Source: Nanobdellota archaeon (lineage in GTDB: Archaea > Nanobdellota > Nanobdellia > Woesearchaeales > JAHJEM01). From it: DNA of 42,322 nucleotides. Where the stretch lies: positions 1-42,322 of the forward strand of contig JAZDID010000098.1 in the NCBI GenBank assembly GCA_043805315.1, given 5' to 3'. Both the position numbers and the translations under genes were made by a program. Shown here in pieces: positions 12,579-41,792 of this stretch (positions are counted from its first letter, which is position 1; each line of letters starts with the position of its first letter). The notes under the pieces were generated by a model. That model saw nothing but the letters and a program-made list of their open reading frames with translations, had not been told where the DNA came from and searched no databases.

Positions 12579-12579
12579 A

Positions 12580-17552: not shown

Positions 17553-17586
17553 ACAGACACGCTAAATTATCCTGACCACATGAAAA

Positions 17587-17817: not shown

Positions 17818-17825
17818 GGTGTACC

Positions 17826-18218
17826 ATGTCACTCAACGATCCCTTGGCAAACGTGTTAAGCTCGGTCAAGAACTATGAAGACCTCGGCAAGAAGGAGCTC
17901 TCAGTCAGGAACAATTCTAAACTCATCAGGAAAGTCCTCAGCATCATGCAAGACAACAAGTACCTGGGCGCATATGAAGAGATACACGACGGCAAAGGCG
18001 GAATCCTCAAGATAAACCTCTTGGGAAACATCAACGACACCAAGGTCATCAAGCCGCGCTTTTCCGTCAAGATCACTGACTATGACAAGTTCGAAAAACG
18101 CTACCTGCTGGCAAAGGACTTTGGCATCATCATCGTGAGCACGCACAAGGGCATGATGACTCACATTGAAGCGAAGAAGCAGAAGCTCGGTGGCAGGCTC
18201 ATCTGCTACTGCTACTAA
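17826..18218 (+). CDS. rps8: Ribosomal protein uS8
   Basis: 130 aa. The N-terminus is MSLNDPLANVLSSVKNYE, with GIIIVSTHKGMMTH further on. Confidence 0.93.
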   Translation: MSLNDPLANVLSSVKNYEDLGKKELSVRNNSKLIRKVLSIMQDNKYLGAYEEIHDGKGGILKINLLGNINDTKVIKPRFSVKITDYDKFEKRYLLAKDFGIIIVSTHKGMMTHIEAKKQKLGGRLICYCY

Positions 18219-18225
18219 CGAAAAG

Positions 18226-18281
18226 ACCGTGAAGAGAAGACCATGAAGATTCAACCATGAAGAAAACACCATGAAGACGCA
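18226..18281 (+). repeat. 14-nt tandem repeat x4 (ACC[G/A]TGAAGANNNN) spanning the rps8-rpl6 spacer and the rpl6 start
   Basis: The units are ACCGTGAAGAGAAG, ACCATGAAGATTCA, ACCATGAAGAAAAC and ACCATGAAGACGCA. They create starts at 18229 (GTG), 18243, 18257 and 18271 (rpl6). Confidence 0.85.
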
Positions 18282-18825
18282 AGAAACTATCATCGAAACG
18301 CTCGACATTCCTGACAAGGTCAGGATCACCCAGAAGGAAAGCATGTTCGAGATCACCGGGACAAAGGGGACTGTTGCCATGCAGCTCCACACTCCACAGC
18401 TCGAGATACGGCCAGAAGGAAACAAACTCCTGTTCATCGTCAAAAAGAAATACACCCAGCGTGAGAAGAAGCTCATCTTCACCTACAAAGCCCACATCAA
18501 AAACGCCTGCAAGGGCGTGATCGAAGGCCACGTCTACAGGCTCAAAATCTGCTCAGGACACTTTCCCATGACAGTGGGGCTGAAAGGAAACACCTTTGAG
18601 GTCAAGAACTTCATCGGAGAGACCATACCGCGGACCATGCGGCTCCGTGAAGGGGTCAAGGTGGTAGTGAACGGCGACGAAGTGGTTGTGGAAGGCATCG
18701 ACCTTGCAAGAGTGTCCCAGACCGCTGCGGACATCGAACAGCTGACGAAAAGGCCTGGCTATGACAAGCGGATATTCATGGACGGCATCTGGATCACAGA
18801 AAAAGACGGAGAACAGCTCGGATGA
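18271..18825 (+). CDS. rpl6: Ribosomal protein uL6
   Basis: 184 aa with a two-domain uL6 pattern, supported by synteny. The start is the fourth repeat unit's ATG; the two preceding ATGs each hit TGA after 5 codons. Confidence 0.92.
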   Translation: MKTQETIIETLDIPDKVRITQKESMFEITGTKGTVAMQLHTPQLEIRPEGNKLLFIVKKKYTQREKKLIFTYKAHIKNACKGVIEGHVYRLKICSGHFPMTVGLKGNTFEVKNFIGETIPRTMRLREGVKVVVNGDEVVVEGIDLARVSQTAADIEQLTKRPGYDKRIFMDGIWITEKDGEQLG

Positions 18826-19424
18826 AACAACTCTTAGCAGAGAGGAACCGGAAGAAGCTCAGACAGCCAAGGTTCACCAGGCAGGACGCGCACAAGAAGA
18901 AAAAGCTTGCCAAGGTATGGCGCAGGCCGAAAGGCTACCACAACAAGATGCGCCGGCACGTCCGGGGCTATCGCCGTGTGATCAAGGTCGGATGGGGCTC
19001 TCCCCAGGAAGTCAAGCACACAGACCAGGACGGCAAAAAGATTCTCCTTATCACTGGACCTGCAGACCTCCAGCACGCGGGGAAAGAGCACGCGCTCATC
19101 ATCTCGAAGAGGATCGGAAAGAAGAAAAAGCTCGCCTTGCTCCGAGAGATTAAGCAGAAAGGGCTCACGGTGTACAACATCACCATCGACGAGTACCTCA
19201 CGAAAGCTGAAAAGGAAATCCAAGAGAAAAAGCAGCTCAAGGAAGCGCAGCAGAAAGAAAAGGAGAAGAAGAAGGAGGAGAAAGCGCAGAAGGAGAAAAA
19301 GTCGATCGAAGAGAAGGTAGAGAAAGAGAAAACACCTGCAACACCTGCAAACCTGCAGACCGAGGAAGAGAAAAAGAAAAAAGAAAAGGAAGAAAAGGAC
19401 AAGGTGCTCACCAAACGCGAATAA
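18822..19424 (+). CDS. rpl32e: Ribosomal protein eL32 with ~85-aa Lys/Glu tail
   Basis: 200 aa. The core is RFTRQDAHKKKKLAKVWRRPKGYHNKMR. It has an ATGA overlap with rpl6. The tail includes QEKKQLKEAQQKEKEKKKEEKAQKEKKSIEEKVEKEK ... EEEKKKKEKEEKDK. Confidence 0.92.
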   Translation: MKQLLAERNRKKLRQPRFTRQDAHKKKKLAKVWRRPKGYHNKMRRHVRGYRRVIKVGWGSPQEVKHTDQDGKKILLITGPADLQHAGKEHALIISKRIGKKKKLALLREIKQKGLTVYNITIDEYLTKAEKEIQEKKQLKEAQQKEKEKKKEEKAQKEKKSIEEKVEKEKTPATPANLQTEEEKKKKEKEEKDKVLTKRE

Positions 19425-19455
19425 TCCCTGATCAAAATCACGAGAAAAAACAACG

Positions 19456-19914
19456 ATGAAACTCAAAGTCCAGAAGAAACTCGCAGCCTCCTTATTGGGC
19501 TGCTCACGGAAGCGGATCAGGTTCGACCCGGCACGTCTTGACGAGATTAAGGAGGCCATCACCAAGACAGACATCAGGGGGCTCATCGCAGACCGTATGA
19601 TTTGGAAGAAACAGGAAAAAGGAGTGTCCCGGGTGCGGGCGCGGAAGATCCTGCGGCAGAAACGGAAAGGCCTGCAGAAATCTGCCGGGAGCAGGAAAGG
19701 GAGCGCGAACGCGCGCGCGCCAGAAAAGCTCGCGTGGATGCGGAAGATCAGGATCCAAAGAGCTTTTCTCAAGGAGCTCAAGCAGAAAAAGCTCATCACC
19801 ACGATAACATTCACCCACCTCTACAGGAAAGCCAAAGGAGGCTTTTTCAGGAGTGTCCGGCACATCAAGATCTACCTGGAGGAAAACAAGCTTGTCCAAC
19901 AAGCAAAGAAATAA
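19456..19914 (+). CDS. rpl19e: Ribosomal protein eL19
   Basis: 152 aa starting MKLKVQKKLAASLLGCSRKRIRFDP. Confidence 0.92.
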   Translation: MKLKVQKKLAASLLGCSRKRIRFDPARLDEIKEAITKTDIRGLIADRMIWKKQEKGVSRVRARKILRQKRKGLQKSAGSRKGSANARAPEKLAWMRKIRIQRAFLKELKQKKLITTITFTHLYRKAKGGFFRSVRHIKIYLEENKLVQQAKK

Positions 19915-19917
19915 ACC

Positions 19918-20475
19918 ATGAACAGACTCACCTTTGTCCAACACCGGAGAAAACGCGAAGGCAAGACCAACTACAAGAAACGCCTCACGCTCTTGAAGAG
20001 CCGGAAACCACGGCTCGTCATCAGAAAGACGAACAAGAGCATCATTGCCCAGGTCGTCGAATACCTGCCGAGCGGAGACCACATCATCTGCGGAATCAAC
20101 TCGGGCTGCCTGCGCAAGGAGGGCTGGCAGTATTCGACAAAGAACATACCTGCCTGCTATCTCACCGGCATCATGCTCGCAAAGAAGCTAAAGGAAAAAC
20201 CTGCAAAAAAAGAAAAAGGCGAAGAGCAAGAATTGATCCTTGACATCGGCCTTCAAACCTCTGTGAAAGGGTCACGCATCTATGCAGTTGTCAAAGGCAT
20301 GATCGACAACAACGTAACCGTCCTCTGCGCTGCAGAAGTGTTTCCCAACCCTGAACGGATACAGGGAAAGCACATCCTCACGTACCACAGCACGAACAAA
20401 GAACAGCACAGCACCAAAGACATGAACGCATTCGAGAGCACATTCAACCAGATCCTGAAAAAATTCACAGCATGA
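19918..20475 (+). CDS. rpl18: Ribosomal protein uL18
   Basis: 185 aa with RRKREGKTNYKKRLTLLKS ... PRLVIRKTNKSIIAQV. Confidence 0.92.
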   Translation: MNRLTFVQHRRKREGKTNYKKRLTLLKSRKPRLVIRKTNKSIIAQVVEYLPSGDHIICGINSGCLRKEGWQYSTKNIPACYLTGIMLAKKLKEKPAKKEKGEEQELILDIGLQTSVKGSRIYAVVKGMIDNNVTVLCAAEVFPNPERIQGKHILTYHSTNKEQHSTKDMNAFESTFNQILKKFTA

Positions 20476-20494
20476 ACTGCACGACAGAGCAAAA

Positions 20495-21313
20495 ATGGAA
20501 CAAAAAACACAGGCAATCGAGTGGCAGCCGAAAACAGCGCTCGGAAGGAAAGTGAAGAACAAGGAGATCGTCAACATTGATGAGATCCTTGACGCAGGAA
20601 GGGCAATCCTTGAAGAGCAGATCACCGACAACCTCCTGTCCCTGGACTCTGAGCTCCTGCTCATCGGGCAGTCCAAGGGAAAATTCGGCGGAGGCCAGCG
20701 ACGGGTGTTCCGGCAGACACAGAAAAAGACACAGGAAGGGAACAAGCCAAAATTCTCCACCATGGCTGTCGTGGGCGACAGGAATGGCCACATCGGCATC
20801 GGATTCGGAAAATCAAAAGACACTGTCCCTGCACGGGAAAAAGCCCTGCGCCAGGGAAAGCTCAACATCATGAAGATCAGAAGGGGCTGCGGCAGCTGGC
20901 AATGCAACTGCGGCACGAGCCACAGCATCCCGTTCAGCGTGACCGGGAAATGCGGATCAGTCATCCTCAAGCTCATGCCTGCACCAAAAGGAAAAGGGCT
21001 CTGCATCGAAACCGAGTGCGCAAAGATCCTCAGCCTCGCAGGCATCCAGGACATCTGGTCAAAGAGCCAAGGCCAGACCAAAAACAGGATCAACATGATC
21101 ACGGCACTCGAAAAAGCGCTGCTGAAACTCTCACAAATAAAAATACAGCCAGATCACCTGAAAATGCTTTCCATCGTCGAAGGATCCCAGATACAGGAAA
21201 AGCAAACAGGAGAGGCAGCTGCGGCAGCAGAGCCTGCTCGTGGCAGAGATACCCGCAGCCCTCGTCACCAGGAAAGGAAAGGCGGGCAAAAAAGGAATAG
21301 GAAAAGGCAATGA
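20495..21313 (+). CDS. rps5: Ribosomal protein uS5 with basic C-terminal tail
   Basis: 272 aa with VVGDRNGHIGIGFGKSKD and GSVILKLMPAPKGKGL. The tail ends RSPRHQERKGGQKRNRKRQ. Confidence 0.92.
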   Translation: MEQKTQAIEWQPKTALGRKVKNKEIVNIDEILDAGRAILEEQITDNLLSLDSELLLIGQSKGKFGGGQRRVFRQTQKKTQEGNKPKFSTMAVVGDRNGHIGIGFGKSKDTVPAREKALRQGKLNIMKIRRGCGSWQCNCGTSHSIPFSVTGKCGSVILKLMPAPKGKGLCIETECAKILSLAGIQDIWSKSQGQTKNRINMITALEKALLKLSQIKIQPDHLKMLSIVEGSQIQEKQTGEAAAAAEPARGRDTRSPRHQERKGGQKRNRKRQ

Positions 21314-21392
21314 GGAGAATATAAAACTCTGAACAAAAAACAAGAAACTGCACTATACCATTCGAAAAAATCATTCGATAAAATAATACTGA

Positions 21393-21848
21393 ATGCGAGT
21401 CATCATGGAAATCAAGAAAACAGAGCAGAAGACCGAGCAGAGAACAGAGCAGAGAACAGAGCAGAAGACAGCGCAAAGATATGCTGCAATCCTGATCAGG
21501 CTTGGCGGAGGGATTCGCGGAGAGATCAAAGACACACTCTTCATGCTCAGATTGCGGAAAAAGAACTGCTGTGTTATCGTGGATGAAAGCACGACTGGCC
21601 TTGGCATGCTCAGGAAATGCAAGGACTTCATAACATATGGCGAAATCGACGCTGAGACAGAAGCGTTCCTGAAGGAAAAACGCGGCATCCCAGATCCAGC
21701 CAACAAAGGACACCTTAAACAGTATTTCCTGCTCCACCCCCCGCGAGGTGGCTTTGGCAGGAAAGGCATCAAAGTGCCATTCACAAAAGGAGGCGCGCTC
21801 GGCTACAGGAAAACAGCCATCAACGCGCTCATACGCAGGATGATCTAA
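21393..21848 (+). CDS. rpl30: Ribosomal protein uL30 with N-terminal (TEQ[K/R])n repeat
   Basis: 151 aa (the alternative ATG at 21405 gives MEIKK...). The core is AAILIRLGGGIRGEIKDTLFMLRLRKKN ... GALGYRKTAINALIRRM. Confidence 0.9.
   Translation: MRVIMEIKKTEQKTEQRTEQRTEQKTAQRYAAILIRLGGGIRGEIKDTLFMLRLRKKNCCVIVDESTTGLGMLRKCKDFITYGEIDAETEAFLKEKRGIPDPANKGHLKQYFLLHPPRGGFGRKGIKVPFTKGGALGYRKTAINALIRRMI
21420..21479 (+). repeat. 12-nt in-frame tandem repeat x5 (ACAGAGCAGAAG-like) inside rpl30
   Basis: The units are ACAGAGCAGAAG, ACCGAGCAGAGA, ACAGAGCAGAGA, ACAGAGCAGAAG and ACAGCGCAAAGA. They encode TEQKTEQRTEQRTEQKTAQR. Confidence 0.85.
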
Positions 21849-21849
21849 G

Positions 21850-22443
21850 ATGAAATACCGAAGAAAAAAGAATGTCAGGCTCCGCGGCTCAAAGACCCAT
21901 GCCTGGGGTGCCATGAAAAAGCACCGGGGAGCAGGCCACCGCGGAGGAAGAGGACGGGCAGGATCAGGAAAACGTGCAGACCAGAAAAAACCCAGCTATT
22001 GGAAAGAGAAGAACTGGGAAGGCAAGCACGGGTTCACCTCAAAATCACGCGCACACGTCTCTGCCATCAACATCAAAGACCTTGACCAGACCGCAGAAAA
22101 GCTCGCCAAGGAACAGATGATACAGAAAGCAGAAAACACCTATACTATCAACCTGAAAGAGCTCGGCTATACAACCCTGCTCGGAACAGGCAGCACGGCC
22201 AAGAAATTCATCATCACTGCAGAGCACGCATCCCGGGGAGCCAGAGAAAAAATAAAAGCTGCTGGCGGCGATATTCTCGGGCTCAAGCCAAGAAAACAGA
22301 AAAAAATAAAAGGCAAAGCGCACGAAGAAAAAGAACACAAAGAACAAAAGGAACAAAAGGGACAAAAGAAACAAGAAGAAATAAAGGAACAAAAGGAACA
22401 AAAGGAACAAACAGCAGCAGAGCAAAAAACAGCAGCGCAATAA
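21850..22443 (+). CDS. rpl15: Ribosomal protein uL15 with Lys/Glu/Gln repeat tail
   Basis: 197 aa with RRKKNVRLRGSKTHAWG and GGRGRAGSGKR. The tail is KAHEEKEHKEQKEQKGQKKQEEIKEQKEQKEQTAAEQKTAAQ. Confidence 0.92.
   Translation: MKYRRKKNVRLRGSKTHAWGAMKKHRGAGHRGGRGRAGSGKRADQKKPSYWKEKNWEGKHGFTSKSRAHVSAINIKDLDQTAEKLAKEQMIQKAENTYTINLKELGYTTLLGTGSTAKKFIITAEHASRGAREKIKAAGGDILGLKPRKQKKIKGKAHEEKEHKEQKEQKGQKKQEEIKEQKEQKEQTAAEQKTAAQ
22333..22413 (+). repeat. 9-nt in-frame repeat family (GAACAAAAG) inside the rpl15 tail
   Basis: GAACAAAAG occurs at 22342, 22351, 22387 and 22396. Variants are GGACAAAAG at 22360 and GAACAAACA at 22405. Confidence 0.75.
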
Positions 22444-22482
22444 GACAATAAGAACTTGATGAAAATCACCTGTTGAGAACCC

Positions 22483-23853
22483 ATGGGATTTTTCGACAAC
22501 CTCCTCCTCAATCTTCCAGAAGTCGCGCCGCCAAAGCAGAAACGGCTGGCGTTCAAGGAAAAGCTGAAATGGACACTCATCGTCCTCATCCTCTTCTATA
22601 TCCTCGGCCTCATAGAGCTGTACGGCTTAGGAGATGCACCTTTACGGCAATTTGAGTTTCTCTCTGTCATCCTTGGCGCATCCTTCGGCTCTATCATCTC
22701 ATTGGGTATCGGACCTATCGTCACTGCATCAATAGTCCTGCAGCTCTTGAACGGCTCAGGCCTGATGAAATTCGACCTCACCTCACATGAAGGAAAACAG
22801 CGCTTCCAAGGAATCCAGAAACTGCTCTCGATATTCTTCATCTTTTTCGAGGCGATGATCTATGTGCTCTTCGGCGGCCTTTCGCCAGCAGCAGGAGTTC
22901 CTGCAGGAATCCTTATATTCCAGCTCTTCCTCGGAGGCATGCTCATCCTCTTCATGGACGAAGTCGTGAGCAAATGGGGATTCGGCTCAGGCATAAGCCT
23001 CTTCATTGCAGCAGGAGTTGCCCAGAACATCTTCATCAGGACATTCAGCCCGTTCAAGCTCGGCGGGACATACAGCGCAGGCGCAATCCCTGCATTATTC
23101 CAAGCATTGGCTGCACAGAACCCGACAGAAGCAGGATTGCGGATAGCATCAATAGCAGCAACCATCATCGTCTTCCTTGTCGTCGTCTATGTGCAGGCCA
23201 TGAAAGTCGAGATTCCCCTGAGCTTCGGCCGCATCAGAGGGCACGGCATCAGGTGGCCCCTTAATTTCATCTACACCAGCAATATCCCTGTCATCCTGAT
23301 TGCAGCATTTCTCGCGAACCTGCAGCTCTTTGCCAGCATTCTCTCGCGATGGAACTATCCTCTCGGAAACCCGCAGACAGGCACCGGGATCATCGGCTGG
23401 CTCTCAGCACCCGGAGGACAGAACGGGCTTGTGGGCCTGATCATCAAGAACGGGACATTCATGATCGGCTGGGAACCCTATGCAAAAGGGCTCACCTATC
23501 TCTTATTCTTCCTTGGAGGCAGCATGCTCTTTTCCTGGTTCTGGGTGCAGACTTCAGGATTGGATGCACGAAGCCAAGCCAAGCAGATGATGGCCTCAGG
23601 ACTCCAGATACCCGGGTTCAGGAAAGACCAACGAGTCCTTGAGCGGCTCCTTGAACGCTACATCCTGCCGCTCACCATCATGGGAGGGCTCGCCGTCGGA
23701 TTCCTCGCAGCAATGGCAGACCTCTCCGGCGCATTGACATCCGGCACTGGATTATTGCTGACGGTGATGATCGTGTACAGATTGTATGAAGAGATCGCGC
23801 AACAACACGTGATGGACATGAACCCGATGATGCGCAAGTTCATGGGACGATGA
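22483..23853 (+). CDS. secY: Preprotein translocase subunit SecY
   Basis: 456 aa with ten TM segments, in the canonical position after L15. Motifs include LGIGPIVTASIVLQLL and GISLFIAAG. Confidence 0.95.
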   Translation: MGFFDNLLLNLPEVAPPKQKRLAFKEKLKWTLIVLILFYILGLIELYGLGDAPLRQFEFLSVILGASFGSIISLGIGPIVTASIVLQLLNGSGLMKFDLTSHEGKQRFQGIQKLLSIFFIFFEAMIYVLFGGLSPAAGVPAGILIFQLFLGGMLILFMDEVVSKWGFGSGISLFIAAGVAQNIFIRTFSPFKLGGTYSAGAIPALFQALAAQNPTEAGLRIASIAATIIVFLVVVYVQAMKVEIPLSFGRIRGHGIRWPLNFIYTSNIPVILIAAFLANLQLFASILSRWNYPLGNPQTGTGIIGWLSAPGGQNGLVGLIIKNGTFMIGWEPYAKGLTYLLFFLGGSMLFSWFWVQTSGLDARSQAKQMMASGLQIPGFRKDQRVLERLLERYILPLTIMGGLAVGFLAAMADLSGALTSGTGLLLTVMIVYRLYEEIAQQHVMDMNPMMRKFMGR

Positions 23854-23916
23854 CCTCTTTTAAGACCCTCCTTCTTTTCATTGCATTCTTTTAGTATTGT
23901 GCCAGTACAATAAAAG

Positions 23917-24473: not shown

Positions 24474-26441
24474 ATGACAAAAAGAATTGGCCCAGGAAAG
24501 ACCGCTCTTTTTACAATCCTGCCTGTGCTTGCATTATTTTTCTCGATACTAGTGTCTGCAGTTGATCAGGAAGAGCAGTATCCTTACGATTTTCTGCCTG
24601 AACGCAACTTCACCTTGAACCTGACAACAGCTAAGGAGGAAGTTTACCAGAAGACAATCATCACGCTCACTAAATTCCTTGCTGCGCAGACCAGGAGCTA
24701 TGACCAGAACACCAAAGGAGACAGTGTTCCACCTGAACAGGAAAACAGCCTGGCCTATGAATATACTGCAACATTGGAACAGGCAGAAGAGCTCTACTGG
24801 TGGATACGCTATCACCCGCCAGAGGAATTGCTTACCAAACCTACATTAGCATGGGTCACTTATCCTATACGGAACATATTCTGGAAAGCAGAGACCTACG
24901 ACGTGTTTGATGGCAGACGATGGTCAAAACGTGGAGAATCGCATGACATCCTGCCGGAGGCTGCAGAATTTGAAACCCTCACAATACTTCATCCCGAATT
25001 TAACCTAGCCAGTGAATTCAACCTTATCCGCCCAGACACCCCTGAATCAAGCATTGACTTCAGAAATTTTAGAAAACCAAAAAAAAGCTTTATCATGTCA
25101 GACAGCTACAGTGATACACGATTGGTGTCTAACAGTGAAAATAATTTTCTCAACTATTCAGTCAAGTATGCTCCGTATAATCCAGAAAGAGAAGTATATT
25201 ACGTTACACCTTATGAATCAGAGGTGATGAGGCAGAACACTCTTGTTCCTCCTGGTATCCTCCAAGAGCTCTCCTCTCTTGCTTTGGAGCTCAAGAATCC
25301 CTCATTGCCTTTACCCGTCCAGCTGAAAAAAAATGCAGAGTTTGTCAGGAACTATCTCACCTACGATCCTGCATGGTTTGCAGGCATAGGCCTGCGCAAT
25401 GATTCTGGAAATATCCTCGAGTATATCCTGACAAATAGAAAGGGCACCAGCCCCCATTACACCACCTTATTTATCCTCATCTCCAGGATACAAGGCATTC
25501 CTGCACGGTTCGCCTCAGGCTATGTCAGCGGGGTCGCATTCGAGAACAAAAGCTATGTCTATGATTCCTTCAGCTATACGTGGCCAGAAATCTATGAGCA
25601 GGGCAAAGGATGGATTCCGTACGATTTGGCACCGTTCAAAGAGCAAGATAAGAAAATAAGAAAATTGGCTGGTATGAACAGCTCTGAACCTATCACGAGC
25701 TATCCTGATGATTCAACACTCCAGCACCTGCTTCTCAAACACCTTGCAGCATGGTACGCGAGGAATTGGACAACTGAGGAACAAAACAAAACTCCCGAGC
25801 AATCGCAAGAACCACCCGGGATAACAGAACAAGAGCAGACAAGTGATTCCCCTGAACCGCATGACCTAGACTTCACAGAAACAATAGATATCGAGGCCGG
25901 CATGCAGCTTGCTAAGAAATCTCCTGTAAACTGCGATGAGCTCGAAGACACGGCTGAGAATCAGGAACTCCTTAAAAAGTGCGGGAAAGAAACCATCACA
26001 GCCCACGTCACACAAAGCACACACACTGTCGTGTATGCCCTCTTTCTTTTCATTGGCACAGGCGGCCTCCTCTTCTTTTACCTGCTGCATAAGAAGAAAA
26101 AAAAGAAAAGGAATGCTTTAGAGCAGATTAAGAAGGAAGAGGTCATGAGCATTATGAAAGAGATGCTGCTTTTAGGAGAACAAAAAGAGTATGCGCAAGC
26201 GATTATTCAGGGATATAATACTGTCTGCAACCACCTCGCAGAGCAATTCCGGCTTGTTATGGAGCCGGGCACCACAGCCAGAGAGTTCATTCAAAAAATG
26301 CCTACGAATGCCGGACTGGAAAGCCTGTCTGTTCTTGTCTTCATCTTTGAAAAGTACGCATATGGATTTGAGACGGACAAGAAGGACTACGATGTTTTCA
26401 TGAACATCCTCCAGTCCTATGCACAGAGGGATGCCGGATGA
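24474..26441 (+). CDS. Transglutaminase-like domain protein with C-terminal TM + DUF4129-like domain; catalytic Cys and His substituted
   Basis: 655 aa. The TGase core is RKGTSPHYTTLFILISRIQGIPARFASGY ... SYTWPEIYEQGKGWIPYDL. A TM segment (VVYALFLFIGTGGLLFFYLL) follows, then the DUF4129-like TAREFIQKMP ... FEKYAYG. Confidence 0.8.
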   Translation: MTKRIGPGKTALFTILPVLALFFSILVSAVDQEEQYPYDFLPERNFTLNLTTAKEEVYQKTIITLTKFLAAQTRSYDQNTKGDSVPPEQENSLAYEYTATLEQAEELYWWIRYHPPEELLTKPTLAWVTYPIRNIFWKAETYDVFDGRRWSKRGESHDILPEAAEFETLTILHPEFNLASEFNLIRPDTPESSIDFRNFRKPKKSFIMSDSYSDTRLVSNSENNFLNYSVKYAPYNPEREVYYVTPYESEVMRQNTLVPPGILQELSSLALELKNPSLPLPVQLKKNAEFVRNYLTYDPAWFAGIGLRNDSGNILEYILTNRKGTSPHYTTLFILISRIQGIPARFASGYVSGVAFENKSYVYDSFSYTWPEIYEQGKGWIPYDLAPFKEQDKKIRKLAGMNSSEPITSYPDDSTLQHLLLKHLAAWYARNWTTEEQNKTPEQSQEPPGITEQEQTSDSPEPHDLDFTETIDIEAGMQLAKKSPVNCDELEDTAENQELLKKCGKETITAHVTQSTHTVVYALFLFIGTGGLLFFYLLHKKKKKKRNALEQIKKEEVMSIMKEMLLLGEQKEYAQAIIQGYNTVCNHLAEQFRLVMEPGTTAREFIQKMPTNAGLESLSVLVFIFEKYAYGFETDKKDYDVFMNILQSYAQRDAG

Positions 26442-27703
26442 AAGAAATAGCATATACACTCTATGCATTCACGGTCATATGCCTCTTTGTCATCACTGTA
26501 TTTCTCGTCCTGATGAGCTCGACTATCAGCGGCATGGTGCGGTTCAACCAAGAAGAGTGGGGATCCTACACTCAACTCAAGAAAGCCATTGCAGAAGAAG
26601 GGTATACTATAAAAATTCTCGTCTTTAATTTCAACAACATCCAAGCCGTCAGGAATGACTCGATCATCCTTATATTCTCTCCGCTCAAACCATATGATGT
26701 GCACGAGATAGACCTGCTGAAAGAGAAAGTTTCTGCCGGCTCCACGCTCATCATTCAAGACCGCTCTATTAACACATATTATCTCCTTAAGGCATTCAAC
26801 ATAACCAGGGGACTACACACGTTATACGAATTCGAGAGCTATCGCAAAAGGCAGGACCTTCCTATAGAACAATTTCATTATGCAGGCATTTCCGGAAATC
26901 TCTCATTTCGCCAGCCACAACCCCTTATCGAAATCCCTCGCTCTGCAGAAGTCATCAGCATGAGCTCGCCACAGAGCTATATGGACATTGATGACAATGA
27001 AATCCTCGATGACCAGGATGGGAAAGGGCCCTTTCCTCTCATCATCTCATTAGTCCATGAAAAAGGGACAGTGGTGGTCATCTCAGACAGTCATCTTCTC
27101 ACCAATGACCTCCTGAATAGAACTGAGAACAGAGGGCTCTTTGAATCCTTGTTACGCACTCTTGGAAATCCAGAAAAGAACCACGTTATCATCGACGAGT
27201 CCCATTCAGGAAAAAGCAATTTCTTCATCCCCACGATCAACCTCTTCATCATGCTTCTCAAGAACGAGTGGCTGGTCATCCTTTTTTCCCTCTGCTTTGC
27301 ATTGCTTTTCCTGGCTCAAAAGATCGCCGATGCCATCCATGAACAGAAGAAAAGGGTCAAGAGGGACCGTCCAGAAAATAGGTTCAGCGAGCTTGTGCAC
27401 AAGACCAAACGAGAGGCAGTATTAAGCATGAATATGAACACTTGGCTGGTTGTGCATATGGGGGATGAGCTGATGCGCCAGATGAAAAAAAGGCTTAACA
27501 GAAAAGATGACACGTCTGCTCCTGAAATACTGGCAGATGAGTTCTGCTCATATTTTCCTGTAGTAAATCCAATAGATTTAAAAAGAATAATCACCCGCAT
27601 CCAAGAGGTAAAAAACAAGAAAAACGCTGTCAGGAGCTTTGAGGAAGCAAAGAAGATTTGTGACAGTATCGAAGACCTCCTTCATAAAATCCAGTCCCTT
27701 TAA
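26438..27703 (+). CDS. DUF4350-like membrane protein
   Basis: 421 aa. It has an ATGA overlap with the upstream gene. An N-terminal TM segment is followed by an extracytoplasmic domain (GSTLIIQDRS, GTVVVISDSHLLTNDLLNRTENRGLFESLL), a second TM segment and a cytoplasmic tail. Confidence 0.65.
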   Translation: MKEIAYTLYAFTVICLFVITVFLVLMSSTISGMVRFNQEEWGSYTQLKKAIAEEGYTIKILVFNFNNIQAVRNDSIILIFSPLKPYDVHEIDLLKEKVSAGSTLIIQDRSINTYYLLKAFNITRGLHTLYEFESYRKRQDLPIEQFHYAGISGNLSFRQPQPLIEIPRSAEVISMSSPQSYMDIDDNEILDDQDGKGPFPLIISLVHEKGTVVVISDSHLLTNDLLNRTENRGLFESLLRTLGNPEKNHVIIDESHSGKSNFFIPTINLFIMLLKNEWLVILFSLCFALLFLAQKIADAIHEQKKRVKRDRPENRFSELVHKTKREAVLSMNMNTWLVVHMGDELMRQMKKRLNRKDDTSAPEILADEFCSYFPVVNPIDLKRIITRIQEVKNKKNAVRSFEEAKKICDSIEDLLHKIQSL

Positions 27704-27743
27704 AATTAGCTCATCCTATATGTGCAAAAAAGAGGTGATGCGC

Positions 27744-28691
27744 ATGAACGTCCCGCAGCTGTTTTCAAAGCTCTCTGCAGAGCTCAGCACAAAGATCATC
27801 GGGAAAACAGACATCATAGAGGAAATATTTATCGCCCTACTCTGCGACGGCCATATCCTTCTCGAAGGAGTCCCAGGCACAGCAAAGACCATCATCGCGA
27901 ACAGCATTTCCAAAAGCATCAATTGCAGCTTCAAGCGGATCCAATTCACGCCAGACCTTCTTCCCTCAGACATCCTGGGGACGTTCGTCTTCAGCCTCAA
28001 GACCCGGGAGTTCGAGCTCAGGCGTGGACCCATCTTTGCCAACTTCATCCTTGCCGACGAGATTAACAGGGCGCCTCCCAAGACCCAGGCTGCACTACTC
28101 GAATGCATGCAAGAGACACAGGTCACTCTTGAAGGATATACCTACAAGCTCAAAGTCCCATTCATCGTCATCGCAACCCAGAACCCTATTGACATGGAAG
28201 GCACCTACCCTCTCCCAGAAGCGCAATTAGACAGGTTCATGTTCAAGAGCAACCTGACCTACCCTTCACGGGATGAGGAAATACGCCTCTTGGCAATGAA
28301 AAACCTTCCGGACAAAGAGATTAAGAGCGTGATTTCACCAGCAGACATTGAAGCGTTGAAAAAAGAGCTGAGTACGGTTAAGATTGACGAAAGCATATAT
28401 GTCTACATCACAGATATCATCCAAAAAATACGCGGATTGCCTGACATTGAGCTCGGACCAGGGCCACGAGCCTCCATTGCCTTTCTTAAAGGAGCAAAAG
28501 CGTATGCCCTAATGAGCGGAAGGGAGTATGTCATTCCAGATGATGTCAAGCGCCTGGGCTATCCTATCCTGCGCCATAGGATACGGCTTAAGCCAGAAGC
28601 CCAGATAGCAGGAATCACTGTCAGCCAACTCATCTCCAAAGCAGTCAATGAAGTCCCAATACCTAAAGTAATGGACAAGTCGAGAAAATGA
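27744..28691 (+). CDS. moxR: MoxR-family AAA+ ATPase
   Basis: Walker A is LEGVPGTAKT and Walker B is ILADEINRAPPKTQAALLECMQE, with ATQNPIDMEGTYPLPEAQLDRF downstream. GAGGTGA (27732-27738) favours ATG 27744; ATG 27738 is also possible. The track start at 27639 overlaps the upstream gene. Confidence 0.9.
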   Translation: MNVPQLFSKLSAELSTKIIGKTDIIEEIFIALLCDGHILLEGVPGTAKTIIANSISKSINCSFKRIQFTPDLLPSDILGTFVFSLKTREFELRRGPIFANFILADEINRAPPKTQAALLECMQETQVTLEGYTYKLKVPFIVIATQNPIDMEGTYPLPEAQLDRFMFKSNLTYPSRDEEIRLLAMKNLPDKEIKSVISPADIEALKKELSTVKIDESIYVYITDIIQKIRGLPDIELGPGPRASIAFLKGAKAYALMSGREYVIPDDVKRLGYPILRHRIRLKPEAQIAGITVSQLISKAVNEVPIPKVMDKSRK

Positions 28692-29980
28692 ACTCAAGAG
28701 CCCTTGTTCTCATATTCATTTCTCTCTTCTGCATAACATACGGCATTGTCTTTGAACGCATAGAGCTCATGCTCATCGGCATCAGCCTTGCATGCTATCT
28801 GTTCTTCACCTACCTTTTCCTCCGTATCCGGACATCCGGCATAGAGATTGTCTTGAAAAAAGACATGGCAAGAAGCAGCCACGAGAAAGAAGACATCCAC
28901 ATCTTAGTCAATATAGAGGTCAACTCGCCCATGGTTTTCGATGTGACAGATGACGCACCAGAGAAAAACATCATCAAAGGGGAGAACAAGGTCTGCAATG
29001 CAAGAGGAAAGGCAACACTAGATTACACACTCAGGTTTGACAATTACTGCGTCTTCAAGACCGGGCCTGTCAAGATAGCTATCCATGACATGCAGCGGCT
29101 CTTTTACTGGGAAAAGCAGGCCGGAGAGACATATTATGTGCTTGTCTACCCCTCCCTGTTCGAGATTAGCAAGATTAAGTTCAAGATCACTGAAAAGACC
29201 CTCTCTAACCTCCTCGGCACACGTAAGACATCAGAGAAAGGTATGGGAAACGAGTTCATGTCCATCAGAAGATATGAAACAGGGGATGACATCAGGAACA
29301 TTGACTGGAAAGCCACTGCAAAGCTGGACACATTAATGGTGAAAACCTTCGAGATAGAAAGAAAACAGCGGATCTTTCTCTTGCTTGACGTGGGAAAAGA
29401 GATGAACACTGGAGAAAAGGCATCTATGATAGACACTGCCGTGTATTCCATGATCTATCTCAGCCAGCTCATCCTTGAAAGGAAGGACATGCTCGGCATC
29501 GGCCTCTATGCAGACGCAATACAGCTCTTCAGCCAGCAAGTCAACTCTCGAAACCAGCTCATGAATCTTTTTGAGCAGGTCAGCTTCCAGACATTCGATA
29601 AAGAGACAGATCACGAGCGCTGCTTTCACCAGCTGTCAGTATACATAAAAAAAAGATGTGGGCTCATCATTATCTCAAACCTCGTCTCAGAAAAACCTGA
29701 AAAGATATTTCACGCCGTACAATATCTGGCCTCAAAAAGCCATTCTATCCATCTCATCTGCCCCTTCGAGCCCTATTTCTTCCAGAAAGAGGAAAATTCG
29801 CTCTTGGACAAGATATCCTATCTCGTGGCAAAACAGCGCTATGACAAGTCCTATGACGAGCTGTACACCATGTTGAAAAAAATCGGCGTGACCATGCACA
29901 AGACAGGTCCGGACAATATAGGAATGAAGCTGACAGAGATCTATCTGGACATAGTCAAGAGGAATCTTGCAGCGGTCTGA
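28688..29980 (+). CDS. DUF58 (vWA-like) protein
   Basis: 430 aa. It has an ATGA overlap with moxR, two N-terminal TM segments, and the signature IRRYETGDDIRNIDWKATAKLDTLMVKTFEIERKQRIFLLLDVGKEM. Confidence 0.88.
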   Translation: MNSRALVLIFISLFCITYGIVFERIELMLIGISLACYLFFTYLFLRIRTSGIEIVLKKDMARSSHEKEDIHILVNIEVNSPMVFDVTDDAPEKNIIKGENKVCNARGKATLDYTLRFDNYCVFKTGPVKIAIHDMQRLFYWEKQAGETYYVLVYPSLFEISKIKFKITEKTLSNLLGTRKTSEKGMGNEFMSIRRYETGDDIRNIDWKATAKLDTLMVKTFEIERKQRIFLLLDVGKEMNTGEKASMIDTAVYSMIYLSQLILERKDMLGIGLYADAIQLFSQQVNSRNQLMNLFEQVSFQTFDKETDHERCFHQLSVYIKKRCGLIIISNLVSEKPEKIFHAVQYLASKSHSIHLICPFEPYFFQKEENSLLDKISYLVAKQRYDKSYDELYTMLKKIGVTMHKTGPDNIGMKLTEIYLDIVKRNLAAV

Positions 29981-37028: not shown

Positions 37029-37826
37029 ATGATTGTTAAAGAAGAGTTTTTAAACAAGCTACGGAGAACGTTTTCTCTGAACCTCTATGAGGTCAAGATT
37101 TGGACAGCCCTTCTTTCCAGAGGGGTATCCACGGCAGGAGAGCTTTCTGACATCGCAAACGTCCCCAGGTCCAGGTCGTATGATGTCCTGGAGAGCCTAG
37201 AGAAAAAGGGATTTGTGGTGATGAAGCTGGGCAAGCCAATCAAGTACCTGGCTGTGCCGCCGAAAGAGGTCGTAGAGCGCGTAAAGAAAAACATGAAGAC
37301 CGACGCAGAAGAGCGGATCAAGAGGCTGGAGGATCTCAAGAGCACTGACGTGATCCACGAGCTGAACTCTCTCCACACCCAGGGGATAGAGCTCATCGAA
37401 CCGTCTGACCTGTCCGGCGCGTTGAAAGGAAGACACAACCTCTACAACCACCTTGAGATGACCATAAAGGGAGCGCAGAAACAAGTCAGTATCGCAACGA
37501 CTGCGCAAGGCCTGCTGCGGAAAGTGGAAGGCTTGAAGCCGATCTTCCAGGACCTCTCGAAAAAAGGGGTTGACATCAAGATAGCGGCGCCCATCAATAA
37601 GGAGACAGAAGCAGCGATCAAGGAGCTGAAAGGCATCGCAGAAGTCAGGCATTCTGACGGCAAATCCAGATTTACCATTGTGGACAGCAAGGATGTCATC
37701 ATGATGGTCATGGACGACGCAGAAGTCCATCCGACGTATGACATCGGCATCTGGCTCAAGGCACCATTCTTGGCGTCAGCGCTCCAGACCATGTTCGACT
37801 CGAACTGGAAGAGCCTGAAACGATAA
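37029..37826 (+). CDS. TrmB-family transcriptional regulator
   Basis: 265 aa. The wHTH is LNLYEVKIWTALLSRGVSTAGELSDIANVPRSRSYDVLESLEKKGFV, followed by a coiled coil and a C-terminal domain. GGAGGT lies 6 nt before the ATG. Confidence 0.88.
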   Translation: MIVKEEFLNKLRRTFSLNLYEVKIWTALLSRGVSTAGELSDIANVPRSRSYDVLESLEKKGFVVMKLGKPIKYLAVPPKEVVERVKKNMKTDAEERIKRLEDLKSTDVIHELNSLHTQGIELIEPSDLSGALKGRHNLYNHLEMTIKGAQKQVSIATTAQGLLRKVEGLKPIFQDLSKKGVDIKIAAPINKETEAAIKELKGIAEVRHSDGKSRFTIVDSKDVIMMVMDDAEVHPTYDIGIWLKAPFLASALQTMFDSNWKSLKR

Positions 37827-37925: not shown

Positions 37926-38819
37926 TTAACAGCGTATAACATATAATAATTCTTCCCCAACTATGCTTGTTTGGAATGGAAGGTCGTGCGCCCGCAAGAA
38001 CCCTTCCAGCCACCAGCGCTTCTCCTCAGCAATGCGCTTCCTGCCGCCGATGGTTTTAGTCGGAAAGGTCACTGCCAGCAGATCCGCATGCTTCGCAAGG
38101 TGGAGAATGAGCTTTTTCGAGATGTGCCTGTTCACTGTCTCCAGCGTGTCCACGAGCTTGAAGAGGAAGCACGCCAGGAATTCATCCTTCGCTTTGTGCA
38201 GGTCAATCATCGGAAAATCTTCTTCCCGGGCGAGATCAATCCGAATCGCAGCGCCCCTGATGCCTCGAGAGCGGAAATAGGAGTTCAGGAAGGCCATGTC
38301 CTGTGATGACACGTCGTATGCGGCATACGTTATGCGCTGTTTCAGGACCCCGGCAAGCAGCTTGCATGACGCGGGATTCATGCCGCAGCCGAGATCGATG
38401 ACGCGGACGCGCTTTCCTTTCCACGCAGGAGCATGCGGCAGGAAAATCTGCCCGTACAGCTCTCGATAGGCAGGCAAGCGCTCTGCACTCGAGCGATGCG
38501 CGCGCAAGATTTTTTCGTCGCTATCACTGGCTTTTTTCTCCGCATATCCCTGCATGATAAACACGCCGTAGACCTCACGCAGCTCCTTCCGGACGGATTT
38601 CAGCACGAGCCTGTACTCGCGTGTCTTTTTTATCTTGGCAGCATCGCCTAACGCCTTTACCATCAATGATCGCCGGATGTTGGGATTTTTCTTGAGAAAT
38701 GACTGTATCCTACCTTCGATGAAATCTGCATCAAGAGTTCGCAATTCCTTTTTTTCCCGGATATCCTTCCCAAGCAGCAGGACAACAGCGTCGAACAGCA
38801 CAGGGTTTACCTTTTCCAT
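37926..38819 (-). CDS. FmrO/Rmt-ArmA family 16S rRNA (guanine-N7) methyltransferase homologue
   Basis: 297 aa. Blocks collinear with my recollection of RmtB are RAHRSSAERLPAYRELYGQIF, RVIDLGCGMNPASC, ACFLFKLVDTLE, LAVTFPTKTIGGRKRIAEEKRWWLEG and VGEELLYVIRC. The start overlaps the pelota 3' end by 13 nt. Confidence 0.8.
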   Translation of the reverse strand: MEKVNPVLFDAVVLLLGKDIREKKELRTLDADFIEGRIQSFLKKNPNIRRSLMVKALGDAAKIKKTREYRLVLKSVRKELREVYGVFIMQGYAEKKASDSDEKILRAHRSSAERLPAYRELYGQIFLPHAPAWKGKRVRVIDLGCGMNPASCKLLAGVLKQRITYAAYDVSSQDMAFLNSYFRSRGIRGAAIRIDLAREEDFPMIDLHKAKDEFLACFLFKLVDTLETVNRHISKKLILHLAKHADLLAVTFPTKTIGGRKRIAEEKRWWLEGFLRAHDLPFQTSIVGEELLYVIRC

Positions 38820-39856
38820 CGCAAGATCCCCGCGATGCCACCAAGGCTGTCAACCTTCCTCACGGCGTCGTGTGTAGAGATGATGTTGACCTTTCCCTTC
38901 GCAGCCTCGACCTTGCGCATCACGCTCTCGACCTCTCGGTACTGATTTTTCTGGCGAGCCTTTTGGATGCACTTGTCTGTCAGGACGAGCTGGCTGATGG
39001 CGCCTTCGTGGGTTTTTTCAGCCACATCTTTCAGGCCATAGGCTGCCATATCCTTGGAAACAGCGGCGAGCAGTTCCTCAACAAGGGAATCTTCTTTGCT
39101 TGTTCGATCTGCCTCAAGCAGTTTCCGCAGCTCAGGCCTCCTCACCACCTCATTGATGACTGTCTCATTCACGTCAGAGCATGCTGCGAGTGTGATTTTC
39201 GGCACAAGCTCTTTGGGCATCTCCTTCATCAGATATTCCTTCCAGAATGATGGGGAAGCGACAACTACATTCTCCAAAGAATACCTCTTGACATACTCTT
39301 GTATGAGCCTGACAATCTCCTGATAGAAACTTTCAGCCTTTTTTTCTTCAATCGCTTTTTTGCGCACATCACCCTTGATTCTAGTGAGCAAGTCATAGCC
39401 CTGGGTCTTGAGCAGGCCGAACAATGCCTCTTCCCTGTCAAAGACCACCACGAGGATCTTGAGCTGGCGAGCTGCTGTCGATTCCTTAAGCTTCTCAAGC
39501 TGGAACGAGAGCCACTCCTTTTTTATTATCTGCACTATTGCAGAAGGCTGGACATCAATGGTCTGGAAGACTCCGCGCGGAATGTCCTCAGGCCCTTCGG
39601 TGATCACGCCGGACACGCGCAGGATGTTCGCGTAATCAGAGAAGTCCACCTTAGCAACCTCTAAGGTGACGTGGAATGTCTTCCTGACTGCTTTTGCGCT
39701 GCCTGCCTCTACATCCCCTATCTTGACTTTCCGCTCAGTCTCTCCTCTCACGCTGTCTCCAGGGTCGATGATCGCGCTCAAATACCAGAGGTCATCGAGG
39801 TTCTGGACAAGCACTTTGACAATGCCATGCTTCAAGTCCTGATGGATAATCTTCAT
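38807..39856 (-). CDS. pelA: Pelota (aDom34) ribosome-rescue / mRNA surveillance factor
   Basis: 349 aa. The N-terminus is MKIIHQDLKHGIVKVLVQNLDDLWYLSAIIDPGDSV, with a three-domain eRF1-like layout. Confidence 0.92.
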   Translation of the reverse strand: MKIIHQDLKHGIVKVLVQNLDDLWYLSAIIDPGDSVRGETERKVKIGDVEAGSAKAVRKTFHVTLEVAKVDFSDYANILRVSGVITEGPEDIPRGVFQTIDVQPSAIVQIIKKEWLSFQLEKLKESTAARQLKILVVVFDREEALFGLLKTQGYDLLTRIKGDVRKKAIEEKKAESFYQEIVRLIQEYVKRYSLENVVVASPSFWKEYLMKEMPKELVPKITLAACSDVNETVINEVVRRPELRKLLEADRTSKEDSLVEELLAAVSKDMAAYGLKDVAEKTHEGAISQLVLTDKCIQKARQKNQYREVESVMRKVEAAKGKVNIISTHDAVRKVDSLGGIAGILRWKR

Positions 39857-39976
39857 TTTTGATTGATACTCTTCATTTTAGAATGCAAAAAACAAGCTGT
39901 TTTAATAATTTTATCGAAATTTCGCTCTATTGACTTGCTCATGTTGACGAATATGCTCGTGGCAATCATCTTTTAT

Positions 39977-40598: not shown

Positions 40599-41792
40599 AT
40601 GCAGAGACACATCCAGAAAAAAGCGCAGACTGCCGGCGGTTCAGCCATCCTTGTCGCGATCATCACGACCTTGATCATCCTGTACATCCTCTTCCTGCCT
40701 CCAGACGAGCGGGCAAGTCTCTTAGGAGACAATACAGGAACCGGAGGGACTGGCGGCTACATAGGGCCATTGCCGAAAGCTGCTGTGCTCTTGGATGCGA
40801 CACCCGGTACACTCTCTGTCGCGCGGACAAACACGATCGAGCACACGATTCCCAGCATCAAGATACTGACCCAGACAAACGCCAATGAGATCAAGAGGAT
40901 AGATTCCTTATATGTCTCACGAGGCTCATTCGACGACGGCAGCAAAGAGGTCAGCTTCAGGCTGGACTCAGGGCTCAGCAATAATCTCCTCCTTTCATTC
41001 AATGTGAAAAAAGCCAGCGGAAAACTCCTGGTCTATCTGAACAACAAAGAAGTCTTCAGCAGCGAACTCAGCCCTGGCACTGCAGAGCCGATCCCGCTCT
41101 CCCGTGATTATCTCAGTGATGAGAACAACCTCACATTTTCCGTGTCTTCCCCTGGCGGTGCATTCTGGCGCATGAACGAGTACCAGCTTGACAGTATTCT
41201 CATCTCCGGAGACATCACTGACGTAAGCAGGGCATTCTCAGAAGTCCACTTCTCAATTTCCCAAAACGAGATCGAGAACCTGGAAAAAGCAGAGCTGAGA
41301 TACACGCCGAACTGCGATGCGAGCAGGGCAGGGACACTTGTCGTGCTCCTGAACACCCGGGTTGTTTTTGGAGGGATTCCTAGCTGCAGGAGCCAGAACA
41401 AGATTGAGATCGCGAAAAACCTTCTCACTCTTGACGACAACATCCTTGCATTCCAGACAGGGGAAGGAAAATACGAGGTCAACAACATCAAGCTCGTCTC
41501 GACACTCCAGAAGCCCATCGACCCTATCTATTATTTTGACATCCCGCCAGAATACTACCAGTATGTCTATGACCGGGAACTTGACGGCTACCTCCTCCTG
41601 ACATTCCCTGACGAGAATCAGATCAAGCAAGGAGTCATAACCCTGAACGGGCACAAGGCGAACTTCAAGACCCAGGGACTCACGTACAACCTGCGGGTTT
41701 CTCCATACCTGAAAGACGGCACGAACTCGCTTATCATCACACCGCAGACCTCCAGCCTGACCATCACAGAACTCAGGCTAGAGCTCAGATAA
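40599..41792 (+). CDS. Surface protein with prepilin-like (class III) signal and three beta-sandwich-like modules
   Basis: 397 aa. The N-terminus is MQRHIQKKAQTAGGSAILVAIITTLIILYILFLPPDER. Three modules end in GKLLVYLNNKEVF, GTLVVLLNTRVVF and GVITLNGHKANF contexts. Confidence 0.65.
   Translation: MQRHIQKKAQTAGGSAILVAIITTLIILYILFLPPDERASLLGDNTGTGGTGGYIGPLPKAAVLLDATPGTLSVARTNTIEHTIPSIKILTQTNANEIKRIDSLYVSRGSFDDGSKEVSFRLDSGLSNNLLLSFNVKKASGKLLVYLNNKEVFSSELSPGTAEPIPLSRDYLSDENNLTFSVSSPGGAFWRMNEYQLDSILISGDITDVSRAFSEVHFSISQNEIENLEKAELRYTPNCDASRAGTLVVLLNTRVVFGGIPSCRSQNKIEIAKNLLTLDDNILAFQTGEGKYEVNNIKLVSTLQKPIDPIYYFDIPPEYYQYVYDRELDGYLLLTFPDENQIKQGVITLNGHKANFKTQGLTYNLRVSPYLKDGTNSLIITPQTSSLTITELRLELR

Follow-up and report, generated by a model that had tools for sequence, protein, structure and literature searches.

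A pelota-linked homologue of the aminoglycoside-resistance 16S rRNA methyltransferases in a Woesearchaeota-like archaeon and its DPANN relatives

Contig JAZDID010000098.1 of the Nanobdellota archaeon assembly GCA_043805315.1 (Woesearchaeales) was analysed over its full length of 42,322 nucleotides (nt), which is called the window below. On the minus strand at 37926..38819 it carries an open reading frame (ORF) of 297 aa plus stop, starting with ATG. Sequence, profile and fold evidence confirmed the encoded protein as an FmrO/Arm-family homologue of the S-adenosylmethionine (SAM)-dependent methyltransferases that modify 16S ribosomal RNA (rRNA) to N7-methylguanosine at position 1405 (m7G1405). 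On balance, the gene probably encodes a vertically inherited housekeeping N7-guanine methyltransferase, which would act on the organism's own small ribosomal subunit at the top of helix 44, most likely at G1405, and would be produced from the message of the ribosome-rescue factor pelota.

An earlier sequence-only reading of this DNA had placed the ORF at exactly these coordinates and assigned it to the Rmt/ArmA, FmrO family. All strings which it quoted from the window, AHRSSAERLPAYRELYGQIF, VIDLGCGMNP, FLFKLVDTLE, VTFPTKTIGGRKRIAEEKRWWLE and VGEELLYVI, are present, and the RmtB strings given for comparison match the real RmtB1 of a plasmid record and align with them in the blocks described. 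A chance ORF or shadow frame was considered and rejected, the opposite-strand ORFs at 37963-38306 being without support.

Family membership and predicted fold

The methyltransferase scored 43.7 bits with the Pfam model FmrO (PF07091; E 3.1e-11), above the model's gathering score of 27, and the family match on which the sequence-only reading had staked its assignment was thereby obtained. In a phmmer search of the PDB, matches better than E 0.08 comprised m7G1405 methyltransferases only. ArmA (3fzg, 1.4e-11) ranked first, followed by RmtF, RmtB, Sgm and RmtC; the entries matched were 3fzg for ArmA, 3frh and 3b89 for RmtB, 3lcu for Sgm, 6pqb, 6cn0 and 8ghu for RmtC, and 6pi9, a 260-residue G1405 methyltransferase chain which we take to be RmtF. 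A tblastn search against plasmids yielded the same kind of enzymes, with armA on top (E 3e-12, 93% query coverage) and rmtF, rmtD, rmtC and rmtB next. The similarity to the Arm/Rmt enzymes is far above chance. NpmA/KamB, the m1A1408 methyltransferases, were not matched by the window protein in the Pfam, NCBIfam or PDB searches; they share with the Arm family the docking surface and the flipping of a base at the top of helix 44, but belong to a different family.

The relationship extends over the whole protein. An alignment of 80 DPANN relatives was compared by hhalign with ArmA, RmtB, RmtC, RmtD2 and RmtF, which gave a probability of 100% and an E-value of 1.6e-48 over columns 6-282 versus 2-258 of 259, that is, from end to end. 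These relatives are the best 80 of at least 493 recovered in a distribution scan with one genome per species, and the conservation counts given below refer to them unless another set is named. The only large difference in the hhalign alignment was a stretch of about 21 residues inserted into the N-terminal domain.

An AlphaFold2 model built from 114 sequences reached a mean predicted local distance difference test score (pLDDT) of 95.7 and a predicted template modelling (pTM) score of 0.90. In it, an N-terminal domain of five helices precedes a Rossmann-type domain, which gives the two-domain architecture of a helical N-terminal and a class I Rossmann-fold C-terminal part. The helical domain comprises aa 1-100 (38520..38819, minus strand), with model helices at residues 6-21, 31-44, 46-58, 60-65 and 67-83; it aligns with the N-terminal domain of the Arm/Rmt enzymes and corresponds to the domain by which RmtC, Sgm and ArmA dock on the 30S subunit. 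In a Foldseek search of the PDB with this model the top 11 matches were all Sgm (3lcu/3lcv), RmtC (6pqb/6cn0) or ArmA (3fzg), with E-values from 8e-16 to 4e-10, template modelling (TM) scores up to 0.74 and about 305 aligned columns. Membership in another Rossmann methyltransferase family, the second outcome by which the sequence-only reading would have let itself be overturned, was rejected, as such folds are weaker by a factor of at least 1000 in E-value, start only at E 2e-7 and leave all leading places to the m7G1405 enzymes.

The window protein resembles ArmA, RmtA-H, Sgm, KgmB and GrmA in its end-to-end homology, two-domain fold and SAM motifs. It differs from ArmA/Rmt in having a multiple-alignment identity of only 22-28% (local tblastn identities reach 30-31%, to RmtF), in falling into a separate clade, in an extra N-terminal helix and in two replaced docking-domain residues discussed below. 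The bacterial enzymes serve producer self-resistance or are plasmid-borne, whereas the window gene is a chromosomal, vertically inherited archaeal gene.

Archaeal members of the Arm family have been known since 2010, when NEQ545 of Nanoarchaeum equitans was presented as the 'first archaeal ortholog', with perfect C-terminal motifs, a diverged N-terminal domain and its function left open (Husain et al. 2010, PMC2896518). NEQ545 was later counted as one of 15 signature genes of the Nanoarchaeota (Podar et al. 2013, PMC3655853). The archaeal occurrence, which the sequence-only reading had called unexpected, is therefore no surprise, given also the relatives in at least 493 species genomes. The window protein is, like NEQ545, a DPANN member of the family whose C-terminal motifs are conserved and whose helical N-terminal domain has diverged, but it originates from a Woesearchaeota-like groundwater archaeon and has one N-terminal helix more than ArmA/Rmt, whereas NEQ545 was reported to be one helix short. 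The two proteins are assumed to be orthologous. A literature search on FmrO in archaea found no paper; as far as the searched literature shows, the breadth of the family in DPANN archaea and its two conserved operon contexts have not been described.

Active-site residues and the target nucleotide

RmtC requires the mature 30S subunit and shares with KsgA the surface formed by helices h24, h27, h44 and h45, on which its N-terminal domain docks via K20, Y21, R50 and further residues (PMC10288597). Helix 44 is pried open by H54, Loop237-246 (S239, R241, M245), T207, R211 and N248; Y60, K204 and K236 secure G1405 once it has flipped, and S107 and D160 bind the cofactor (PMC10288597). Y60 stacks on SAM and on G1405, K204 turns toward the N7 of G1405, S107 contacts the SAM carboxylate and D160 the SAM ribose (PMC10288597). 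These residues were mapped onto the window protein via the alignment with the reference enzymes, and their conservation was counted across the archaeal relatives.

The cofactor site is retained throughout. The motif H-x-S-(S/T)-x-E-R (H108-R114; 38478..38498, minus strand) aligns with LHASTKER of RmtB, and within it S110, the equivalent of RmtC S107, and R114 are invariant (80/80 each), with H108 in 76/80 and E113 in 78/80. SAM-binding motif I, VIDLGCGMNP (38373..38402, minus strand), has D142, G146 and N148 in all 80 relatives. The acidic residue of motif II, D169 (38313..38315, minus strand; RmtC D160), is D in 46 relatives and E in the other 34. The residues which position G1405 in RmtC are kept as well. 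K221, the counterpart of the catalytic K204, lies in the FKLVD segment (38148..38162, minus strand) and is invariant in the relatives (80/80) and in the wider set (114/114). F87, which corresponds to Y60, is conserved in 78/80 and belongs to the segment RKELREVYGVF (38559..38591, minus strand), together with R77 (RmtC R50; 78/80) and R81 (RmtC H54). The loop KTIGGRKRI (38031..38057, minus strand) is the counterpart of the helix-44-distorting Loop237-246; its K255, R260 and I263 align with K236, R241 and M245 and are found as K/R in 57, K/R in 66 and I/M/L in 77 of the 80 relatives. In the model the confidence dips slightly around this loop (blocks 251-270, pLDDT 89-91). Loop237-246 is disordered in free RmtC (PMC10288597). 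On the docking side, the KKEL motif K23 K24 E25 L26 (38742..38753, minus strand) aligns with KKY of ArmA/RmtB (RmtC K20-Y21), with K23 being K in 76/80 and K24 in 67/80 relatives. RmtC R211 has no aligned counterpart in the window protein. Shared with the bacterial Arm/Kgm enzymes are thus the lysine K204/K221, the aromatic residue Y60/F87, the HxSTxER motif and the helix-44-distorting loop.

This pattern suggests that the catalytic and helix-distorting machinery is under strong selection and that part of the docking domain was remodelled; the enzyme is therefore taken as active and RmtC-like, presumably adapted to the archaeal subunit. By analogy with RmtC, the helical N-terminal domain would dock on the h24/h27/h44/h45 surface of the mature small subunit, and the K-T-x-G-G-(K/R)-x-x-(I/M) loop with neighbouring residues would distort helix 44 at its top; a guanine could then flip into the pocket between the aromatic F87 and SAM and would be methylated at N7, with the invariant K221 located where the modification takes place. 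G1405 of the organism's own 16S rRNA, a universally conserved nucleotide, would be the most likely target. As a by-product, the ribosomes would be constitutively insensitive to 4,6-disubstituted deoxystreptamine aminoglycosides. The proposed role is comparable to that of KsgA/RsmA/Dim1 (m6,2A1518/1519) in that a Rossmann-fold enzyme of housekeeping character would act late on the small subunit and on the same h24/h27/h44/h45 surface; KsgA/RsmA/Dim1 belongs to an unrelated family and modifies another base and atom, so the resemblance is functional only.

Several observations weigh against this reading, in particular against G1405 as the target. The first concerns the relation to the resistance enzymes themselves. 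With the NCBIfam equivalog model of acquired resistance Rmt enzymes (NF000466), the protein scored 101.5 bits (E 4.6e-29), below the cut-off of 250, with an alignment spanning residues 63-295 versus 29-253 of the 254 model positions. It accordingly belongs to the family, but not to the equivalog group of acquired resistance enzymes. The second concerns docking. Two near-universal residues which RmtC cannot do without, H54 and Y21, are replaced by R81 and L26 in the window protein: the position of H54 is R in 68, H in 9 and N in 3 of the 80 relatives, and that of Y21 is L in 64, F in 12 and Y in 4, so that the tyrosine hydroxyl is mostly absent. In addition, the docking domain contains the DPANN-clade-specific insertion of about 21 residues (38622..38687, minus strand), an extra helical element (helices 46-58 and 60-65) at which all five reference enzymes have a gap. 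Sgm and KgmB are cited as having failed to protect yeast small subunits despite the conserved A site (cited in PMC2760815); as far as this secondary citation goes, docking would be lineage-specific.

The third point concerns rRNA from N. equitans, the only organism which has a member of the family and for which this rRNA region has been mapped in a publication. Mass spectrometry of its 16S helix 44/45 region (Seistrup et al. 2016, PMC5389701) showed the RNase T1 fragment UC(Am)(Am)Gp, nt 1406-1410. Formation of this fragment needs a T1 cut after G1405, and m7G1405 blocks cleavage by RNase T1 (Savic et al., PMC2760815); G1405 would hence not be stoichiometrically N7-methylated in N. equitans. 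In the same study, fragments containing nucleotide 1402 were missing from their expected mass, and RiboMeth-seq indicated a base modification at G1401 to which no enzyme was assigned (PMC5389701). Either NEQ545 is inactive or substoichiometric in N. equitans, or the archaeal enzymes hit a different target nearby. The N. equitans data weaken the G1405 assignment and leave the family assignment untouched. Rfam and tRNA scans of the window gave no match, hence no local rRNA in which position 1405 could be checked, and the 16S motif 1392-1408 was absent from all 90 related loci fetched.

The N. equitans data and the changes in the docking domain speak for an enzyme of the same family and chemistry which modifies another guanine of the decoding region, G1401 or a different small-subunit site, because its diverged N-terminal domain docks in a shifted register. 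Such a shift would account for a T1-cleavable G1405, the off-mass 1402 fragments and the modified G1401 of N. equitans, and it is in line with the replacement of H54 and Y21 and the helix inserted in the docking domain. It is further favoured by D224, a clade-specific and near-invariant residue (76/80) beside the catalytic lysine, where RmtC has T (T207) and ArmA/RmtB have P. A changed target geometry is, however, hard to square with the retention of all of RmtC K204, K236, R241, M245 and Y60, and the sequencing ambiguity at G1401 is better explained by m1G or m2,2G than by m7G. We consider a shifted target rather unlikely. A broader version, in which a DPANN-wide enzyme installs a constitutive guanine methylation of the decoding centre other than m7G1405 (e.g. 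at G1401) and perhaps also acts as a late checkpoint on the KsgA/Dim1 surface, appears to us unlikely.

The outcome matters in either case. If constitutive m7G1405 is correct, an archaeal radiation carries as a housekeeping mark the very modification by which pathogens attain pan-aminoglycoside resistance, the chemistry predates clinical use, and the approximately 2000 sequence clusters (50% identity) form a natural set for studies of ribosome recognition. If the target differs, the specificity of the family is more plastic than assumed, and the modification in the decoding centre of N. equitans may gain an enzyme. To our knowledge, the origin of the pathogen-type ArmA/Rmt enzymes is still unknown; with a mark or checkpoint other than m7G1405, the archaeal clade and not the actinomycete producers would be their deep relative.

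Distribution, inheritance and the pelota junction

The relatives found in at least 493 species genomes are deeply diverged (27-50% identity). Among the best 80, all are of DPANN type and carry the labels Woesearchaeota, Nanoarchaeota, Nanoarchaeia, Pacearchaeota, 'archaeon' or 'uncultured Methanosarcinales'. A first single-sequence homology search had returned 9 proteins only, an underestimate in view of the genome scan and the profile searches; in an exhaustive profile search of 1.84 billion representatives, 2111 clusters (50% identity) were obtained at E<=1e-3 and 968 at E<=1e-30. Several relatives have already been named '16S rRNA (guanine(1405)-N(7))-methyltransferase' automatically by JGI. 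Neighbour-joining analysis kept the archaeal clade apart from the bacterial-type sequences sampled and from the five reference enzymes, with a support of 99 in 100 bootstraps. The trees were calculated on simple Kimura distances, with the actinomycete producer enzymes (Sgm, KgmB) outside the sample, and thus fix neither the root nor the nearest bacterial relatives.

The divergence of the methyltransferase tracks that of pelota. For the 22 sequences with both genes recovered (the window and 21 related loci), the pairwise distances of the two proteins correlated with a Mantel r of 0.79, a value which was reached in 0/2000 permutations, and their mean divergence was similar (0.60 for the methyltransferase, 0.55 for pelota). 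The GC contents of the two genes, 0.526 and 0.51, are also alike. The window is chromosomal and contains a Hef-type helicase-nuclease, a fused primase, an L3-to-SecY ribosomal-protein operon and both subunits of phenylalanyl-tRNA synthetase (PheRS). The methyltransferase gene is placed between pelota and TrmB/PheRS, beside the ribosomal-protein operon. No mobile element was found in the window near the methyltransferase gene, and the genomic setting of an acquired resistance Rmt gene is thus missing. Because of its breadth, the separation of its clade, the pelota-tracking divergence, the chromosomal window and the similar GC content, the gene is read as a vertically inherited housekeeping gene and not as a transferred resistance cassette. 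A recently transferred mobile resistance gene was rejected on the grounds of the separate clade, the chromosomal setting and the divergence in step with pelota.

A primary function in self-protection is a different matter from recent transfer. Here, m7G1405 would be kept by exposure to kanamycin- or gentamicin-type compounds in groundwater or sediment, and the gene may originate from bacteria. Every characterised family member confers resistance through m7G1405, ArmA is the best single-sequence match, NEQ545 was placed nearer to pathogen-type enzymes (Husain et al., PMC2896518), and in our neighbour-joining tree two reference enzymes and the sequence P0104 adjoin the archaeal clade. Against these points stand the presence in at least 493 species genomes at 27-50% identity with a divergence that follows the core gene pelota, the location in operons of translation and ribosome biogenesis instead of biosynthetic clusters or mobile elements, the bootstrap-supported separation from all sampled bacterial enzymes and the score below the NCBI resistance-family cut-off. 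We regard self-protection as the primary function as distinctly unlikely. Of the two roles offered by the sequence-only reading, the housekeeping modification of helix 44 is therefore favoured by the evidence and protection against aminoglycosides disfavoured.

The gene upstream of the methyltransferase, at 38807..39856 on the minus strand, encodes pelota (aPelota/Dom34); its ORF scored 228.6 bits with NCBIfam TIGR00111 (cut-off 177.65) and carries the eRF1 domains 1-3 of Pfam. As the sequence-only reading had stated, the start of the methyltransferase overlaps the pelota stop region by 13 nt, a direct reading of ATGGAAAAGGTAA at 38807..38819 (minus strand). The ATG begins at 38819 within the C-terminal ...R-W codons of pelota, and the pelota TAA occupies 38809-38807. 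The junction (A/C)GATGG, with the ATG inside the last ...L-R-W codons of pelota, recurs in at least 18 of the approximately 28 pelota-type loci; in related loci the stop-start overlap measures 7-19 nt and is kept across about 50% protein divergence. The conserved overlap points to co-transcription of the two genes, and the methyltransferase would be translated from the pelota message, its ATG embedded in the last codons of pelota. The A/T-rich stretch 5' of pelota (39857..39920, minus strand) has two TATA-like boxes, GATAAAATTATTAAAA and TTCTAAAATG, and is, as read by eye, a candidate archaeal promoter of the pair; scans for sigma-70 promoters and intrinsic terminators do not apply to archaea and were set aside. 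Among public reads, the sequence was matched only in DNA of groundwater metagenomes, with no RNA run among the matches.

The examination of pelota synteny, suggested together with the original assignment, showed that about 28 of the 80 loci share the gene order of the window, in which pelota is followed by the methyltransferase, a TrmB-family regulator and the alpha and beta subunits of PheRS. The TrmB-family transcription regulator of the window (37029..37826, plus strand; PF01978, 67.6 bits) is convergent with the methyltransferase, and in 22 related loci such a regulator is the next gene downstream. A second arrangement, present in about 11 further loci, has the methyltransferase as the last gene after aIF1A, RIO1 and a KH protein (Pno1/Dim2-like). 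Further neighbours include a MiaB-like methylthiotransferase, an Rsm22-like methyltransferase and aIF2-gamma, and each context corresponds approximately to one subclade of the methyltransferase tree. The aIF1A, RIO1 and KH/Dim2-like factors have their place in the late maturation of the small subunit and in the occupancy of its A site. The contexts, all related to translation, support a role on the small ribosomal subunit; a specific functional coupling to pelota may exist as well. The links to pelota and to aIF1A-RIO1-Dim2 provide a concrete starting point for studying how ribosomes mature and are quality-controlled in organisms which cannot yet be grown alone.

The latter gene context raises the question whether the protein is mainly a late assembly or quality-control factor of the small subunit, which acts on the h44/h45 surface in the manner of KsgA/Dim1, with methylation being secondary, and which might compensate for a loss of KsgA/Dim1. 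Its place at the end of the aIF1A-RIO1-KH(Dim2-like) late-maturation cluster would suit such a factor, as would the use of KsgA's h24/h27/h44/h45 surface on mature 30S by RmtC (PMC10288597) and the absence of KsgA/Dim1 from N. equitans and some other nano-sized archaea. The invariant catalytic and SAM-binding residues, however, argue that the activity itself is under selection, and the window holds nothing bearing on KsgA. This explanation seems very improbable.

Variation around the conserved gene orders

Divergent to and upstream of pelota, the window encodes a predicted membrane protein of 397 aa without a Pfam match (40599-41792, plus strand). A membrane protein of about 400 aa is located divergently upstream of pelota in approximately 20 related loci (e.g. 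L003 3641-4840 and L010 3643-4857); its gene is usually preceded by that of a DUF4112 protein of about 630 aa, and the conserved pair travels with the pelota-methyltransferase block. In a Nanoarchaeota metagenome-assembled genome (MAG), the closest named relative with a 49% identical methyltransferase, the interval between methyltransferase and TrmB holds an insert. It consists of a VapB-VapC (PIN) toxin-antitoxin pair (L081/L082, 4556-5171) and a protein of 661 aa whose Pfam matches are periplasmic-binding-protein-like and DHQ-synthase-like.

In three loci (L039 4053-5381, L052 2740-4098, L059 207-1049) the Rsm22-like methyltransferase (PF09243, the family of the mitochondrial small-subunit protein Rsm22) is encoded just 5' of the Arm-like gene, possibly a pairing with a second small-subunit methyltransferase. 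The order pelota-methyltransferase-TrmB-PheRS was also present in MAGs labelled 'uncultured Methanosarcinales archaeon' (L006, L007, L009, L012 and other CAY*/CAZ* records). Their sequences fall among the Woesearchaeota-labelled matches, and the organism name which these co-assembly records bear is probably erroneous or a placeholder. A sister group of shorter proteins (P0105-P0114, about 251 aa) includes a gene at 5001-5756 of locus L088, on a contig of 651 kb which also carries genes of archaeal type (ERCC4-HHH nuclease, DRG/TGS GTPase). It adjoins an M16 peptidase gene and not pelota; the family thus extends to a further lineage with another gene context.

Elsewhere in the window, a single ORF of 465 aa (7363-8760, minus strand) matches both PF01896 (primase small subunit) and PF04104 (large subunit) and represents a fused PriS-PriL primase. 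Such a fusion has been reported for Nanoarchaeota. The ribosomal-protein operon at about 9500-23900 (plus strand; L3, L4, L2, S3, S4e ... SecY) has a very strong coding-strand skew of A over T of 0.35-0.43. Two of its products are long, L4 with 335 aa (the Pfam domain ends at 263) and S3 with 324 aa, which suggests Lys/Glu-rich extensions. A block of four genes at 24474-29980 (plus strand) encodes a transglutaminase-like protein, a DUF4350 protein, a MoxR AAA+ ATPase and a DUF58 protein. Between the genes of a LemA-family protein and an M48 peptidase, a SET-domain protein of 154 aa is encoded at 4841-5305 (plus strand; PF00856, 59 bits), possibly a protein lysine methyltransferase in a DPANN genome.

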